A stretch of DNA of 64,000 bases from NCBI GenBank assembly GCA_026066175.1, contig GCA_026066175.1_4721.2. One strand, written 5' to 3'. Shown one piece after another: positions 1,923 through 23,300 of this stretch; position 1 is the first letter of the stretch; every line of letters begins with the position of its first letter. A model generated the notes under the pieces. The model saw only the letters and a list, made by a program, of their open reading frames with translations. It ran no database searches and was not told where the DNA came from. The stretch is from a phage. Both the position numbers and the translations under genes were made by a program.

Positions 1923-2543
1923 TCACAAACGACGCAGGCGATAATGGATGGAACGATTGGTGCAATATGAACGGAACAGCGGTAATTGCGCAACTTCCGC
2001 AAGACTCATATTAATTCGCAGATGTTCGATAACCGCGCTGTAGTTATCGGCGATACGATCGCTCAGTAACTCTTCTGCCAATAAAGGAAGACAATCGACA
2101 ACGATGGCGATCACATCCTCATTAACATAACGCACCCGAACATTGAGTGGACGTTTGTCTGGGCCGTAAGTTGGATCCGCCAAACGACGTTCAATATCGC
2201 GTGGATAGCTCGTCAGTAAATGGTAATAACCATTGTCATAACGATTGATGTACTCACACAGCACATCAACATTCTTCTCTGGCGGCAAACCTGTTTCGTC
2301 ATAGTGATACGCAAACATACCACCAAGCAGGTTGTTAAGATGAACCGCAGGGTTCGCTTGTTCGTGTTCTTTCGTGATGAAGAAAGGCACGTTCTGGGCT
2401 GCGAAATAAAAACCTACATCATTGGGCGATAGTATGCCGAAAAGACTTTTAGGGTCTAATAACACCTGTAAGTCATCACGCGCATTTCGAATAATCGCGT
2501 GTTCTACCCAATTCGGAACGACGAGATATCGGAGTTCCTTCAT
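1923..2543 (-). CDS. hypothetical protein (206 aa)
   Basis: ATG start with AGAGG SD; divergent from the plus-strand gene starting at 2583. Confidence 0.65.
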   Translation of the reverse strand: MKELRYLVVPNWVEHAIIRNARDDLQVLLDPKSLFGILSPNDVGFYFAAQNVPFFITKEHEQANPAVHLNNLLGGMFAYHYDETGLPPEKNVDVLCEYINRYDNGYYHLLTSYPRDIERRLADPTYGPDKRPLNVRVRYVNEDVIAIVVDCLPLLAEELLSDRIADNYSAVIEHLRINMSLAEVAQLPLFRSYCTNRSIHYRLRRL

Positions 2544-2582
2544 TATGATTACCTCTTTGCAAGTATCGAAAGGATTGAGTCG

Positions 2583-4193
2583 ATGGACCCAAAACAGATA
2601 GCCATTAAGATTATTACGTTACTGTTTCGTAATGCACAATTGAACCATCCCGATCCCAGTACGATCGAACATGTTAAATCCGTCTTAGATAAAATCGAAC
2701 CCCCGAAAAACCATCTCACCGTTGATGTGGATAGAGAGGTTTTCAACAACCTGATGAACACCATTCATTGGATGTTGGAACAACCGTTATCGGAACCTTT
2801 CGATAAACAACAGTTGCTACAAAGGATACGTTTAGATTGCCTGGAACAAAGCCACGTTTACGAAATTCTCGCCGACGGATTGTACGATATCGAAGACGAT
2901 GCTCATATCAGTAAGGTCTGTTCGCTTTACTACAATGAATTACGTAATCTGATTACCCGTCGTCGTGTATTTGAAACCTTTAAAAACACGTACATGGATA
3001 TCAGTAACGGCCGCCTTGGGGACAAAGAATTTTTCGACGCGATGGCGAATTTGAAACTATCGCTAGATACCATCGAAATGGATACTGAAAACCCCGAAGA
3101 AATGTCCTGTATGATTGACGGCTTCATCGCTGATAGTGAAGACGATATTGAAAAAGTCGAACGTATGTTCGTTAAGGCGATGGAGCGTAACAGTCCTGAA
3201 GGGGGATTTGTCACCGGCTGGCAGGGGTTTAATAAAATGTTGGGGTCGGTCGGCGTATTACGTCGTGGTACTCTAGGATTGATTGGCGCGATGCAACACC
3301 GTAATAAATCAGGGGTGTTATTAAAACTTTTCACCCACCTGGCGTTGTACAATAAACCCCATTTCTTTTTTCCGGAGCGCGCAAAGAAAGCCTTATTGAT
3401 TCATCTCTCAACAGAGAACGAAGTTGAAGAAAACACGCTTCAAATCTACAAGAACATGCGAGAACAGGAAACAGGTGAATATGTCGATATTCGTAAGATT
3501 GACCCACGTGAAGCTTCACGCTATGTACTGAACGTTTTCAATAATGCGGGGTTCTCTGTCTGCATGCGTCGTGTTGATGGAATGAGCTATAAACAACTTG
3601 CTAACCTTATCGACCATTTTGAACGTATGGGTTATGAAGTTATGGCTTTGTTCATCGACTATCTAAAAATGTTCTCGTCAGAAGGATTAGATAGGAATGG
3701 GCCTACGGGCGCTTGGCTGCAAGAACTCTTCAACAAAGTACGTAACCTCTGTAGCGTTAAACGTATTTTAGGTATGACCGTACACCAGTTGTCTTCTGAT
3801 GCGAAGATGCGGGCACGTGATGGTAACGATGAAGAATTTGTTGACCAAGTCGCCGGTTTAAGTTACTGGGATGGATGTAAAGGGATTGACCGTGAGATTG
3901 ACCTTGAGGTAATTGTTGATATCGTTAAGGAACCTGGCAAACGTCAAAGCTGGCAGGTCTTTGCGCTAGGGAAAGACCGTCAACCGGATAACGGCTCAAC
4001 AAAACCTGAAGATAAACATTTTGCGATGCCGTTCCAAACCATCGGGATGCTTCCTGACGATTACGGTAAGAAAGCGGTGTATTGCCGCAAGGTTGGCGGA
4101 CAACCGGTCTCTGAAGGAGGCAAAGGTCCGTGGAACAAGTTTGATGAACATGCCGCACCGAGTAATGAACTACAATTTGATTTAGAATTCTAA
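2583..4193 (+). CDS. putative DnaB-like (SF4, RecA-fold) helicase homolog with deviant Walker A
   Basis: ATG at 2583 with AAAGGA SD (the listed 2499 start is GTG and would overlap the divergent gene). Motif order as in DnaB C-terminal domain: LIGAMQHRNKSG (P-loop-like, Asn in place of the conserved Gly), MALFIDYLKMF (Walker B / H2), TVHQLSSDAKMR (H3-like), GIDREIDLEVIV (H4-like). Confidence 0.6.
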   Translation: MDPKQIAIKIITLLFRNAQLNHPDPSTIEHVKSVLDKIEPPKNHLTVDVDREVFNNLMNTIHWMLEQPLSEPFDKQQLLQRIRLDCLEQSHVYEILADGLYDIEDDAHISKVCSLYYNELRNLITRRRVFETFKNTYMDISNGRLGDKEFFDAMANLKLSLDTIEMDTENPEEMSCMIDGFIADSEDDIEKVERMFVKAMERNSPEGGFVTGWQGFNKMLGSVGVLRRGTLGLIGAMQHRNKSGVLLKLFTHLALYNKPHFFFPERAKKALLIHLSTENEVEENTLQIYKNMREQETGEYVDIRKIDPREASRYVLNVFNNAGFSVCMRRVDGMSYKQLANLIDHFERMGYEVMALFIDYLKMFSSEGLDRNGPTGAWLQELFNKVRNLCSVKRILGMTVHQLSSDAKMRARDGNDEEFVDQVAGLSYWDGCKGIDREIDLEVIVDIVKEPGKRQSWQVFALGKDRQPDNGSTKPEDKHFAMPFQTIGMLPDDYGKKAVYCRKVGGQPVSEGGKGPWNKFDEHAAPSNELQFDLEF

Positions 4194-4218
4194 AACGCAA
4201 AAAAAAAATCGTACGGTT

Positions 4219-4250
4219 CCCTCCTCCAACCCGGAAGGGAAGGAGGAGGG
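4219..4250. terminator. conserved palindromic hairpin CCCTCCTCC-AACCCGGAAGGGAA-GGAGGAGGG between convergent genes
   Basis: 9-bp GC stem, internal AA/AA, CCC/GGG, GGAA loop; an A10 run at 4199-4208 gives a U-tract for the minus-strand transcript. Confidence 0.6.
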
Positions 4251-4267
4251 TTATGACCGTTATGGTG

Positions 4268-4594
4268 TTAACTTATCGTCATGAATTCCGTAGGTGAGAA
4301 TTTCCAACCGTTTTCATTGAGAAGCGTGTTAAGTTTCGCTGCAACGATAAGCCATGCGTGCATGGCTGTCACATCGTATTGGCGATTAACACGGCGTTGG
4401 TTTTCGATATCGATTTGCTCCCGTTCGGTGATGTTTGGGTAGAGCGCGACGGCGCTGGGCTTCCCTAACGCATCACTCATTACCGCCTGACATTCACTGA
4501 TGATGTTATTGAGATGATAATTGTAAACCGTTCCACGCATAACACGATGACGGCATTCAATAATAGCGTCGTAAATAATTTCTCTTGTTGTCAT
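4268..4594 (-). CDS. hypothetical protein (108 aa)
   Basis: ORF in the minus-strand block, start 6 nt after the upstream stop. Confidence 0.55.
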   Translation of the reverse strand: MTTREIIYDAIIECRHRVMRGTVYNYHLNNIISECQAVMSDALGKPSAVALYPNITEREQIDIENQRRVNRQYDVTAMHAWLIVAAKLNTLLNENGWKFSPTEFMTIS

Positions 4595-5710: not shown

Positions 5711-6544
5711 TTACTTAGCTTTCGGATTATACGGACTAACATGTTGTTGCATTCGTTGGATTGTTTCGTAGTACGGGTTATAATGAGTGAACATATTGTT
5801 GTATGGATGGTAGCCGTAAAGCGCATTTTGCCTTGCCGGTGAGAAACCTTTTTGAGAAGGACGATTTGAATTTACTGCGAGCACGTAGTAAACCAAATTT
5901 TGATGGTCGAATGTTCCTTCGTTTTTGAAGGTGTCAGCATAGGCGCTTACCGCAGGAGCAAGTCTATCACCATCGGTTGTAATGATCGTACCATCCGGGT
6001 AAACTTCTCGAACGATACACCATGTTCCGATGAGAACATCTTCGGGTGTCTTATTACTGTATCCGACTGTAACGGTAAGGTAAGTATCGAATCCTCCTGA
6101 GCGCTGCGGATGTCGATAAATTGGGCCAGTCGTTTCTGCTTTATCGGTTACGGTTTTTTCGTAAGGACACTTCTTGATTGCTTTGATGTAAATATCGGGA
6201 ATCTCTAATACCGCCTTATCAGGATGAATTCTAAAATGATTCTTGAGTAAGCCCAAAAGGTTGGTTGCTACCACGTCGTGAGGTAGTACCCAATAACTGG
6301 TAGGGGAGTCATCGCCGTCTCTCTTGGAGAAGATGACTGCCTTGTTATCGTCGTCTGGTAGACTGAAGAAAACGATTGACTCAATAGGCATAGCCAGCTC
6401 ACCACAACAGGGGTCAGCGGATAACACCCAATTGTATTTGTTGTCCGTTTCGTATAAATGTTCTGTTCTGTCGATACTACGATCCTTCAATTGGATGTAG
6501 CGTTCACGTTGTTTCTTGGTTAATTTACGGTAGATAGTGGTCAT
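5711..6544 (-). CDS. hypothetical protein, paralog family of 5711/6630/7431 genes (277 aa)
   Basis: N-terminus MTTIYRKL; shares VREVYPDGTIITT and PIYRHP...YLTVT segments with the 6630 gene product. Confidence 0.75.
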   Translation of the reverse strand: MTTIYRKLTKKQRERYIQLKDRSIDRTEHLYETDNKYNWVLSADPCCGELAMPIESIVFFSLPDDDNKAVIFSKRDGDDSPTSYWVLPHDVVATNLLGLLKNHFRIHPDKAVLEIPDIYIKAIKKCPYEKTVTDKAETTGPIYRHPQRSGGFDTYLTVTVGYSNKTPEDVLIGTWCIVREVYPDGTIITTDGDRLAPAVSAYADTFKNEGTFDHQNLVYYVLAVNSNRPSQKGFSPARQNALYGYHPYNNMFTHYNPYYETIQRMQQHVSPYNPKAK

Positions 6545-6588
6545 GTTAAGCTCCTTGATTACGGTAAGGATGATTTCGGTTTTGTGAT

Positions 6589-6617
6589 GATGGTAGGACC
6601 ACTTTGTTTAGGATCCT
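6589..6617 (-). terminator. imperfect hairpin GGTAGGACC...GGATCCTACC between paralog genes
   Basis: 7-9 bp stem in the intergenic gap. Confidence 0.3.
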
Positions 6618-6629
6618 ACCAGTACGGGA

Positions 6630-7403
6630 TTATTCATGATCAGTGTAGAAATGGTGAGGATAGCCGGAGTACGATCCTGCGTTACCGGCTATGGATTCTT
6701 TCTGGGAATCGACGACGAGCGCGTAGAACTGTCGGGAATTTGTTAACGTTGAGAAATAAGAGGAAAGGACTTTTTCGTTCAACGCATCGCACGGTAGACA
6801 GGTACGCCCACAGAACGTCGTAATACGGCCATCCGGATAGATCTCACGGATCATACGCCATTCACCGATATCAACCGGCGATGGCGCTGCTACACCACCT
6901 GTTATCGTTAAATAACGATCATACGTGGTATGACATTCTGGATGTACGTAAATTGGCTTATTGGCCTCAACTTCTTCAGGAGCATAGCGTCGACCGAGAA
7001 GTTCAATAACCTCCAGATAGATTGTAGGCAGATCGCAAAGAACCCCTTCCTCTTTACGTTTCTTCGTGATTCGAGGACGAACCTCATTGATAACGTAGGC
7101 GAGTTCATTCAGCGCTTCTTGCGCTGGTAGCACGAATAAACGGTCCGGTTTGTCGGACAAGTCTTCATTTACGTAAACGTAACAAACATCGTCTTTAGGC
7201 GCGTAGAAGAAGCGAGAGACCTTAAAGGTTTCCGTAGTACGATAACCGAGACGCGTTTGGTCCTGCACCAGAGAAAATATCCAGCGACGTCCTTCGTCCT
7301 GTTCAATGATATCATTGAACATCTTTGTTTGATCAGGAAGTTGATATTCTTCCTGTAATTTAGCAAGTGCTTCATTATCCAGTTTGGTGTAAACATCAGT
7401 CAT
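6630..7403 (-). CDS. hypothetical protein, paralog of 5711 gene product (257 aa)
   Basis: N-terminus MTDVYTKL; IREIYPDGRITT and PIYVHPECHTTYDRYLTITGG align to the paralog; Cys cluster CGRTCLPC. Confidence 0.75.
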   Translation of the reverse strand: MTDVYTKLDNEALAKLQEEYQLPDQTKMFNDIIEQDEGRRWIFSLVQDQTRLGYRTTETFKVSRFFYAPKDDVCYVYVNEDLSDKPDRLFVLPAQEALNELAYVINEVRPRITKKRKEEGVLCDLPTIYLEVIELLGRRYAPEEVEANKPIYVHPECHTTYDRYLTITGGVAAPSPVDIGEWRMIREIYPDGRITTFCGRTCLPCDALNEKVLSSYFSTLTNSRQFYALVVDSQKESIAGNAGSYSGYPHHFYTDHE

Positions 7404-7430
7404 GATAGTATCCTCGATTAGTAAGGTTGG

Positions 7431-7835
7431 CTAGTCTATCTTAAGCCAGATTGATGGTAAATGGAAATAGACACCGTCGTCTATTTGTTTTTGTGTTAAC
7501 GGGGTTGGAAGTTTAGTGATGATGTTGTCGATCGATTCCTCAATGTCACTTGTTAGAACGTCGATGTGGTAATAGCGAGCGATGCGTCCGTTACGTTCTA
7601 GCCAAAACAGACGAACGAAATCACTATTTTTATTAATCGCATTCATAAACACGATTTGATGAAGCAGGATCATTCTTGACGAGGGGTAATCGTCAGGACG
7701 CGGAGTCATCACCAGTTCCCAACGTTTCCGTCGCACGCCTTTTTTGAATTGACTCGTTACATTTGAACCACTTTTACCTAAGTTTATAACAAATTGCTTT
7801 AGACGATACGGTGTGTTTCTGTAAATATCGGTCAT
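7431..7835 (-). CDS. hypothetical protein, short member of the same family (134 aa)
   Basis: N-terminus MTDIYRNT; first gene after the TATATTAC repeat. Confidence 0.65.
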   Translation of the reverse strand: MTDIYRNTPYRLKQFVINLGKSGSNVTSQFKKGVRRKRWELVMTPRPDDYPSSRMILLHQIVFMNAINKNSDFVRLFWLERNGRIARYYHIDVLTSDIEESIDNIITKLPTPLTQKQIDDGVYFHLPSIWLKID

Positions 7836-21925: not shown

Positions 21926-23257
21926 TTATTTCTGTGCTGCGTCAGCCGGTTTTTCAGCCGCCTGGCCGCTGTACTCTTTCAGCATTTTAGCAACGCCGTC
22001 CAGTACTGCGTTACCCGCCTGAACACCGTACTTCATCAGGCTAACCTGCGGGTTGATGTAGCAAGAACGTGCGTCTTTCAGTGCAGACAGCACAGTTTTA
22101 ACACGCTGTTTCTCTTGAGCAGAAACTTCGCCTTTCTTAGCCAGTTCAGCTTCCATATCGTCGCCGAATTTAACAGCGTCTTTGAAGCCCTGGGATTTCT
22201 TACCGATGTTACCTTTCGCAGCCAGCAGTTTATCGGCCAGCGCTTCAACGCTGTTGATCACCGCAGCCATCTGGTTCGGGGACAGTACATCGGCTTCCTG
22301 TTCCATCACGGTGATTGCGTTATTGCCGCGTTCCCAGGTCACTTTACCGTCGGTGGTTTTGAATCCCCAACCGTTCGGACCTTTCACATCAGCGATCGCA
22401 GGCGCGTTCAGTTTGTCGGTGTACTCAGTATGTGATTTAGACTTAACGAGTTCAACGAATTTATCCGCACGATCGTCAGCCGCCTTCATTGCTTTCTCGA
22501 AGGTATCTGCGATTTTGCTTGATGCACCAGCGATATCGATATCGCCAATATAACCGGTAACAGTGGTGCCCAGTTTAACTTTCGCGTTCTTCGGAGAGCC
22601 TTTACGTTTGGCGATCATTTCTTTCAGTTTAGCCGCACGTGCTTTCAGTTTGGTTGCACCGTCGAAGATACGATCGATGAACTTCACGAAGTTGTCCCAG
22701 GTGGATTTCAGGAAGTTCTTAATTGCAGTCCACAGTTTCTGCCACCATTTCTGTTCTTCCAGGAAGATCATGTTGGTTGCATCATAACGGGAAGCGGAAC
22801 CGCCGAAGCTTTCGAAGGAAGGCATGGTTTCCGGCAGTTTGAAGCCGATAGTACCACACAGACGTTTCAGATTACGCATGTGTTCTTGCGCGGTCTGTGC
22901 AGACATACCACCGTCTTTCAGATAGCTTTCGGTCGCAACAACGGTTTCCGTCATTTCGTCCATGGCTTCGTCCATGGCTTCAGCGGTTTCGTCGTCTTTT
23001 GCGATTTCGATAACAACAGCATCAACCTGCTCGATGTCACCACGGACTTCGATAGCCAGTTCGGTTTCAGCAGCGGTGTCTTCAGCGATTTCAGCACGTT
23101 CGGTCAGTTCAGCCACAACGGTTTCATCGCCTGCAGCAGCATCGGCTGCCGGTTCTGCTTCAACGGTTGCCGCAGCTTCCGGATCGATCTCAGCAGCCAG
23201 TTGAACCAGCTGTGCGTTAGATGGATTTGCGACAAGACGATCAAAAATAGAAGGCAT
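21926..23257 (-). CDS. hypothetical protein, distant member of the same paralog family (443 aa); probably abundant
   Basis: Strong optimal-codon bias; acidic N-terminal region; WQKLWTAIKNFL helix comparable to family members. Confidence 0.85.
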   Translation of the reverse strand: MPSIFDRLVANPSNAQLVQLAAEIDPEAAATVEAEPAADAAAGDETVVAELTERAEIAEDTAAETELAIEVRGDIEQVDAVVIEIAKDDETAEAMDEAMDEMTETVVATESYLKDGGMSAQTAQEHMRNLKRLCGTIGFKLPETMPSFESFGGSASRYDATNMIFLEEQKWWQKLWTAIKNFLKSTWDNFVKFIDRIFDGATKLKARAAKLKEMIAKRKGSPKNAKVKLGTTVTGYIGDIDIAGASSKIADTFEKAMKAADDRADKFVELVKSKSHTEYTDKLNAPAIADVKGPNGWGFKTTDGKVTWERGNNAITVMEQEADVLSPNQMAAVINSVEALADKLLAAKGNIGKKSQGFKDAVKFGDDMEAELAKKGEVSAQEKQRVKTVLSALKDARSCYINPQVSLMKYGVQAGNAVLDGVAKMLKEYSGQAAEKPADAAQK

Positions 23258-23300
23258 AATTTTGTTTCCTTTACAATAAATTGCACATTAGCTAATGCGG

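Follow-up and report, generated by a model that had tools for sequence, protein, structure and literature searches.

A divergent DnaB with a modified ATP-binding motif, evidently the Walker A motif described below, was reported by Iyer et al. in 2021, and the DNA polymerase associated with it was found to be highly divergent as well (PMC7824862). The proteins constitute the Pfam family PF20307 (divDNAB, "Divergent DnaB-like ATPase") of the phiKZ-like 'group 1' jumbo phages, or Chimalliviridae; being curated in Pfam and published in 2021, both the family and its unusual ATP-binding motif are already known. In a later study, Prichard et al. (Cell Reports 2023) used six conserved proteins as markers of chimallin-encoding phages, one of them the replicative helicase. 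They counted it among the core genes of chimalliviruses, where a helicase shares a block with the major capsid protein, and a GFP fusion to the helicase gp315 of phage RAY was located inside the phage nucleus (PMC10299810). The same nuclear localization is reported in reviews for the helicase of phage 201phi2-1. Our literature search turned up no member of the family that had been studied structurally or biochemically, for instance for ATP binding, hydrolysis or unwinding.

The gene examined here lies in a 64,000-nucleotide stretch of phage DNA (contig GCA_026066175.1_4721.2 of assembly GCA_026066175.1), which is referred to as the window. The open reading frame occupies positions 2583-4193 on the plus strand, the strand that carries all of the parts of the gene described below, and consists of an ATG start codon at 2583, 536 codons and a stop codon at 4191-4193. 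That it is a real gene, as had been assumed in the first-pass annotation, is borne out by its presence in the list of open reading frames and by its conservation with Escherichia phage vB_EcoM_Goslar, a 237-kb nucleus-forming jumbo phage whose annotation includes the nuclear shell protein and PhuZ. The helicase region is 91% identical to Goslar at the nucleotide level, and the protein is the orthologue of Goslar gp043, which is annotated as 'DnaB-like replicative helicase', of phiKZ gp118 (PHIKZ118) and of RAY gp315. The helicase gene is a lone plus-strand gene in both phages, with the major capsid gene just upstream on the opposite strand and a run of minus-strand genes downstream, and its position near the capsid gene matches the published core block. 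An in-frame GTG at 2499 is a possible alternative start that would lengthen the protein by 28 residues; however, the homologues and the Goslar annotation start at the ATG (MDxK[LQ][LI]) and not at the upstream GTG. The sequence AGGA is found 8 nt upstream of the ATG. A scan for sigma-70 promoters and terminators around the gene detected sites no more numerous than in shuffled sequence, and the lack of an excess of sigma-70 sites is expected because the phage is transcribed by its own RNA polymerases.

Comparison of the helicase gene with that of Goslar uncovered 151 differing bases out of 1608, which correspond to 133 synonymous and 10 non-synonymous codon differences and a dN/dS of 0.015. The two proteins are identical at 526 of 536 residues (98.1% by tblastn), and none of the 10 differing residues falls in a catalytic motif. 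The gene is under very strong purifying selection.

We examined the relationship of the protein to known helicases with sequence profiles and with a structural model. The protein matches Pfam PF20307 over residues 151-513 with an E value of 1.4e-120 and a score of 402.7 bits (the gathering cut-off of the family is 26 bits), covering profile positions 3-355 of 356, and it matches PHROG 3213 ('DnaB-like replicative helicase') over residues 1-516 with an E value of 2.5e-123; both matches are well outside what chance would give. The similarity to DnaB is not detectable by single-sequence searches: phmmer with the helicase protein against the PDB sequences returned no helicase and only a chance match at 0.13, and phmmer with E. 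coli DnaB missed the helicase reading frame. We therefore rely here on a family profile built from 22 homologues. In hmmsearch this profile matched the Aquifex and Geobacillus DnaB chains in the PDB, with alignments that span Walker A, the catalytic Glu, IDYL and QLS and that stop before H4 and the arginine finger. When the family alignment was compared with E. coli DnaB by hhalign, DnaB residues 174-444 were aligned with an E value of 3.8e-6, whereas the comparison with T7 gp4 was not significant (E 0.16). Of DnaB and T7 gp4, the two profile targets proposed initially, only DnaB is matched, and the profile comparisons indicate that the relationship is to DnaB proper.

An AlphaFold2 model built from the 22-sequence alignment (mean pLDDT of 79) shows an all-helical N-terminal domain, resembling that of DnaB in the Foldseek comparison and spanning approximately residues 1-165 (2583-3077), a low-confidence linker (residues 166-183), and a C-terminal domain of alternating strands and helices. 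The latter is the RecA-like ATPase domain of DnaB (approximately residues 205-515; 3195-4127), as is also evident from the Pfam match and the hhalign alignment; the N-terminal domain lies outside the Pfam match and inside the PHROG match. The last 20 residues (517-536; 4131-4190), with pLDDT values below 50, form a disordered acidic tail that ends in ELQFDLEF. Foldseek searches of the PDB returned only DnaB, T4 gp41 or SPP1 G40P among the top 50 entries, with E values down to 8e-16 and around 500 aligned columns; the DnaB entries include those of Vibrio, Geobacillus, E. coli, Aquifex, Thermus and Helicobacter. The length of the structural alignment argues that both domains of the helicase are DnaB-like. 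Together, the Pfam, PHROG and hhalign profiles and the Foldseek fold support the initial description of the protein as a DnaB-like helicase homologue.

The most unusual feature of the protein is its P-loop, which reads GAMQHRNKS (residues 235-243; 3285-3311). In the hmmsearch alignments this segment pairs with ARPGMGKT of Aquifex DnaB and ARPSVGKT of Geobacillus DnaB, and in the hhalign alignment GAMQHRNKSGV pairs with AARPSMGKTTF of E. coli DnaB, lysine on lysine and ungapped. Because the lysines align without a gap, Asn241 (codon 3303-3305) is placed exactly at the Gly of the DnaB GKT, and the following Lys242 (codon 3306-3308) and Ser243 are retained. Counted from Gly235 the spacing is G-x6-K-S, and the DnaB-type Walker A, A-x4-G-K-[ST], begins at Ala236. 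The canonical Walker A sequence [AG]-x4-G-K-[ST] is not found, as the protein has A-M-Q-H-R-N-K-S, with Asn in place of Gly; it is this non-canonical Walker A that places the protein in a divergent subfamily rather than with canonical DnaB.

The remaining DnaB motifs follow in the same order. The sequence STENE (3408-3422), which aligns with SLEM of E. coli DnaB (SLEM/STEN), is the H1a motif and contains the candidate catalytic glutamate Glu278. Walker B is represented by FIDYL (3651-3665; IDYLQL/IDYLKM) with Asp359, and H3 by HQLSSD (3783-3800), which aligns with SQLNR or SQLSR of DnaB proteins (SQLNR/HQLSS in the E. coli alignment) and in which Gln402 is a candidate γ-phosphate sensor. An H4-like sequence, IDREIDL (3885-3905), contains Asp440 and aligns with IEQDADL. 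Finally, GKDRQP (3969-3986), aligned with GKQRNG, contains Arg466, a candidate trans-acting arginine finger by analogy with what is known of DnaB, and the neighboring Lys464. The helicase hence fits the description given by Iyer et al., with a modified ATP-binding loop and with Lys242, Ser243, Glu278 and Asp359 of the Mg2+/catalytic site intact.

One could argue that the substitution is only apparent, the true P-loop being located elsewhere in the protein or the reading frame not being a real gene. We reject this explanation, to which we assign a negligible probability. Two profile methods yield the same ungapped alignment of the lysines, those family members that carry GKS carry it in the same alignment column, the strand-loop-helix position of the segment in the model is the right one for a P-loop, and a motif scan found no other [AG]x4GK[ST] in the helicase protein. 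In addition, the gene is conserved, as the dN/dS value given above shows. The first-pass annotation had read both the Asn at the Walker A glycine and the order FIDYL, HQLSSD and IDREIDL from the sequence; re-translation of the gene reproduced all four segments, and the alignments place them at the corresponding DnaB motifs.

The concern that the Walker A of homologues is canonical, and that Asn241 merely reflects a wrong alignment, was addressed by examining residue usage across the family. Homologues are present in 288 phage records, among them phiKZ-like Pseudomonas phages, jumbo phages of Erwinia, Salmonella, Vibrio, Serratia, Aeromonas, Klebsiella and Ralstonia, and Bacillus phage AR9. An exhaustive profile search gave 1607 clusters at 50% identity, 657 of them at E <= 1e-30, and we aligned 175 sequences, namely the best 150 representatives, the first 22 homologues and five named phage proteins. 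The position of residue 241 is occupied in this alignment by Tyr (73 sequences), Phe (64), Asn (17), Trp (7), Gly (6), His (4), Cys (2), Ser (1) or Asp (1). The Gly before the Walker A lysine is therefore lost in 169 of the 175 members, and in 144 of the 175 it is replaced by an aromatic residue (Tyr, Phe or Trp). The six sequences that retain GK[ST] in the same column, which confirms the alignment, include the proteins of phage EL (AMTNRGKS) and Halocynthia phage JM-2012 (ALSGMGKS), and their canonical GKS shows the ancestral state. The surroundings of the variable residue are conserved, the family P-loop signature being [GSA]-A-[LM]-Q-H-[NK]-[FYWN]-K-[ST]-G. Lys242, Ser/Thr243, Glu278 and Asp359 are invariant (175 of 175), and when gapped sequences are left aside Gln402 is found in 172 of 173, Arg466 in 171 of 173 and Lys464 in 170 of 173; Tyr360 is present in 174 and Asp440 in 168 of the 175 sequences.

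Judging from this alignment, the non-Gly P-loop is a trait of the whole phage helicase family, and Asn, as in the window helicase, is one of the less frequent outcomes of a Gly loss that runs through the family. We considered whether Asn241 marks a single clade, and rejected this idea, as the Asn-bearing members are scattered on a neighbor-joining tree of the 175 sequences; the other residue types at this position are scattered over the tree as well. There was no co-variation of note between residue 241 and His239, the latter occurring with Gly, Asn and aromatic residues alike. The C-terminal tails of the family are net acidic; of 172 sequences, 61 have an aromatic residue at the very end, which is Phe in 46.

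P-loop NTPases very rarely have a bulky residue immediately ahead of the lysine. One could envisage that the protein continues to serve as the replicative helicase but has been functionally retuned, the non-Gly residue altering nucleotide binding as an adaptation and not by neutral drift. The helicase might prefer other NTPs or dNTPs, hydrolyse them more slowly or with tighter coupling, or escape a host factor directed at canonical DnaB-type sites. Such a view draws on the replacement of Gly in nearly the entire family, mostly by aromatic residues and within the signature A-L-Q-H-[NK]-[FYWN]-K-[ST]-G, and on the high divergence of the associated polymerase mentioned above. The model points in the same direction: the helix after the P-loop starts at His239, three residues before Lys242, making the P-loop more helical, and the geometry of the phosphate-binding turn may be slightly different from that of canonical DnaB. 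However, residue 241 is the most variable of the loop, with nine residue types scattered on the tree, which makes relaxed constraint likelier than selection for one new chemistry, and the members with canonical GK[ST], such as those of EL and the Halocynthia phage, share the family and the surrounding motifs. We consider the retuning unlikely on balance, and hold it equally improbable that the replacement of Gly created a distinct nucleotide-binding mode, for example by bringing a side chain to the base or ribose or through a more helical phosphate-binding turn. Were it true, the adaptive loop could shift NTP choice or coupling, or hide the helicase from host or competitor factors that recognize canonical DnaB sites, and replicative helicases would then include a Walker A motif of a new functional class. 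The lability of residue 241 amid fixed surroundings argues instead that the P-loop has been remodelled but is functional, and the loss of the glycine looks like relaxed constraint and does not point to inactivation.

P-loop NTPases normally cannot do without the Gly of GK[ST], and its absence here is a reason to ask whether the protein has kept the DnaB fold but lost ATP hydrolysis, and acts as a ring adaptor or as a loader for the host DnaB or for a phage SF2 helicase. The genome of Goslar could supply the latter, as two other helicases, gp160 and gp164, both of the SF2 type, are annotated in it. Furthermore, two antisense oligomers directed against PHIKZ118 gave no plaque or ChmA phenotype as scored (PMC12571901, supplement file 3), although this absence of a phenotype may result from a weak knock-down. 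In genome-wide transposon insertion sequencing of phiKZ, on the other hand, PHIKZ118 (1476 bp) had 0 insertions, as in the capsid gene, and the neighboring PHIKZ117.4 had 17 (PMC12676376 supplement), keeping in mind that, as the authors noted for other genes, missing insertions can also stem from polar effects (PMC12676376). An inactive scaffold is difficult to reconcile with the catalytic residues: the 175 family members show no exception at the Lys and Ser/Thr of Walker A, at the catalytic Glu or at the Asp of Walker B, and very few at the Gln sensor and the Arg finger. A further point against this reading is that the phage shell keeps the DNA-processing proteins of host and phage apart from cytoplasmic ribosomes and metabolic enzymes (PMC12908238).

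The searches for a partner to be loaded argue in the same way. The family profile matches exactly one reading frame in the window and one in the complete 237-kb Goslar genome, and neither this profile nor the Goslar annotation revealed a second DnaB-type helicase in the window or in Goslar. When phmmer was run with E. coli DnaB and T7 gp4 against all reading frames of the window and of Goslar, nothing credible was found, a search that reaches canonical, close relatives of DnaB only. The fold fits helicases and not known loaders: the whole protein, with both domains, aligns to DnaB, gp41 and G40P and not to loaders of the DnaC, lambda P, DciA or gp59 type, loader families are absent from its Pfam and PHROG matches, and the loader-complex entries found by Foldseek (9oa1, 8a3v and 6qel) match through their DnaB chains only. 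The possibility of an inactive scaffold or loader is therefore very small in our estimation. The first-pass annotation had raised a catalytically altered helicase, a helicase loader and an inactive paralogue as alternatives and had proposed a search for a second canonical helicase in the genome. A catalytically altered helicase may still apply; the loader is not supported, given the fold and the lack of a second DnaB-type helicase to load in the window and in Goslar, and neither is the paralogue, given the single copy, the conservation of the hydrolysis residues other than Gly in the 175 members and the dN/dS of 0.015.

No primase is found in the Goslar annotation, in agreement with the report of Iyer et al. 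that group 1 jumbo phages are without both DnaG-type and archaeo-eukaryotic primases (PMC7824862). A window reading frame at 21929-23287 that matched T7 gp4 with an E value of 0.004 was considered as a hidden primase and discarded, since Pfam and PHROGs identify it as a phiKZ-type internal head protein.

Based on these comparisons, we conclude that the protein, which belongs to the divergent DnaB family (PF20307) of phiKZ-like nucleus-forming jumbo phages, is very probably the replicative DNA helicase encoded by a Goslar-like jumbo phage of E. coli. An active hexameric replicative helicase, rather than a loader or a dead paralogue, is most likely because of the DnaB fold, the catalytic set, the single copy, the core-gene status, the nuclear localization of orthologues and the purifying selection. 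By homology, the subunits would assemble as a ring hexamer, with Lys242 and Ser243 of Walker A holding ATP between neighboring subunits. The alignment with DnaB further suggests that the altered P-loop still binds nucleotide and that hydrolysis would involve Glu278 and Asp359, with Gln402 sensing ATP and Arg466 of the adjacent subunit completing the site in trans. Hydrolysis would then power movement along the lagging-strand template, with a presumed 5'-to-3' polarity, and would open the fork for the equally divergent B-family polymerase of the phage, represented in Goslar by gp244 and gp068, inside the phage nucleus.

We regard the annotation of the window as settled in that the gene encodes the only replicative helicase of the phage; it is one of the core genes that nucleus-forming jumbo phages share, and its product is no pseudo-enzyme. 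The helicase is part of a replication system with a divergent B-family polymerase, no recognizable primase, and replication within a protein shell. The divDNAB family would also represent a natural experiment, in which the Gly of GK[ST] appears to be dispensable in a RecA-fold motor, nine residues being tolerated at its position while the lysine remains constant. What is added here to the account published in 2021 is the tally of residue 241 usage and the acidic, often aromatic-ended tails of the family.

Compared with the systems described at the outset, the window helicase is a member of PF20307 and shares with the family the P-loop signature A-[LM]-Q-H-x-x-K-[ST]-G and the capsid-adjacent neighborhood. 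It differs from most members in having Asn before the lysine (17 of 175), where Tyr or Phe is commoner, and the Goslar clade to which it belongs has a longer C-terminal tail, of around 20 residues. With bacterial DnaB (PF03796 DnaB_C plus N-terminal domain), T4 gp41 and SPP1 G40P it has in common the two-domain architecture, the fold, and the order and identity of the motifs, but the sequence identity is only about 12-16% and the Gly of GK[ST] is replaced; unlike bacterial DnaB, it has no DnaG-type primase partner, as none is encoded by the divDNAB phages. T7 gp4 is likewise a RecA-type hexameric phage replicative helicase (the hexamer being assumed by homology for the window protein) and has an acidic C-terminal tail whose last residue is aromatic, a feature that recurs in the acidic, in part aromatic-ended tails of the divDNAB family. 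However, the window helicase has no primase domain and its family gives no significant hhalign match with gp4, and the Walker A of gp4 is a canonical GK[ST] (GMGKS). The MCM helicases of archaea and eukaryotes also have a Walker A without Gly before the lysine, with Ala or Ser in GDPxx[AS]KS; in contrast to the divDNAB proteins, they belong to the AAA+ fold class and not to RecA/DnaB, are of opposite polarity, and carry a small replacement residue rather than a bulky or polar one.

The divergent DnaB-like helicase gene (2583..4193) is the lone plus-strand gene inside a long run of minus-strand genes, both in the window (1923..4594) and in the closest relative, Escherichia phage vB_EcoM_Goslar (NC_048170, 45811..48481). 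The upstream neighbour, an ORF at 1923-2543, is divergent to the helicase gene and lies 39 bp from its start, and the downstream neighbour is convergent with it and lies 74 bp from its stop. Scans for sigma-70 promoters and terminators around the helicase gene returned no more sites than were found in shuffled sequence; therefore, promoters in the 39-bp divergent spacer, if there are any, would be ones read by the phage's own RNA polymerase.

A short way downstream of the helicase gene, the window carries a segment of about 2.1 kb (5711..7835, − strand) that Goslar lacks; the matching place in Goslar holds only the 189-nt gp047. The segment encodes a pair of paralogous ORFs, 277 and 257 aa long, which are 31% identical (E 8e-21), and a third, smaller ORF of 134 aa that is weakly similar to this family (E 9e-4). 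None of the three ORFs had a match in Pfam or PHROG. The segment has the look of an accessory cassette peculiar to this strain and enlarged by duplication. Outside the helicase finding, the Goslar record also has two annotated group I introns (169269-169645 and 211817-212245), both of which, according to the annotation, adjoin genes for RNA polymerase subunits and for HNH/NUMOD endonucleases.

The replication genes annotated in Goslar include those for an RNase H-like ribonuclease (gp190) and an NAD-dependent ligase (gp121), together with two polymerase genes (gp068 and gp244). A primase of any kind is absent from the annotation of the whole Goslar record, which agrees with a puzzle already noted in the literature, the lack of both DnaG-type and AEP primases in phiKZ-like phages (Iyer et al. 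2021, PMC7824862).

The helicase itself ends in an acidic, disordered C-terminal tail (residues 517-536; window 4131..4190, plus strand) that terminates in ELQFDLEF. Across the helicase family (PF20307), the net charge of the last 15 residues averages about -2.5, and of the 172 members tallied, 46 end in Phe and 61 in an aromatic residue; many members also carry a G-x-x-P-[FW]-[FW] motif close to the C-terminus. Acidic, Phe-terminated tails are found in T7 gp4, T7 gp2.5, and E. coli SSB, where they dock onto polymerases. The tail of the helicase resembles those of these three proteins.
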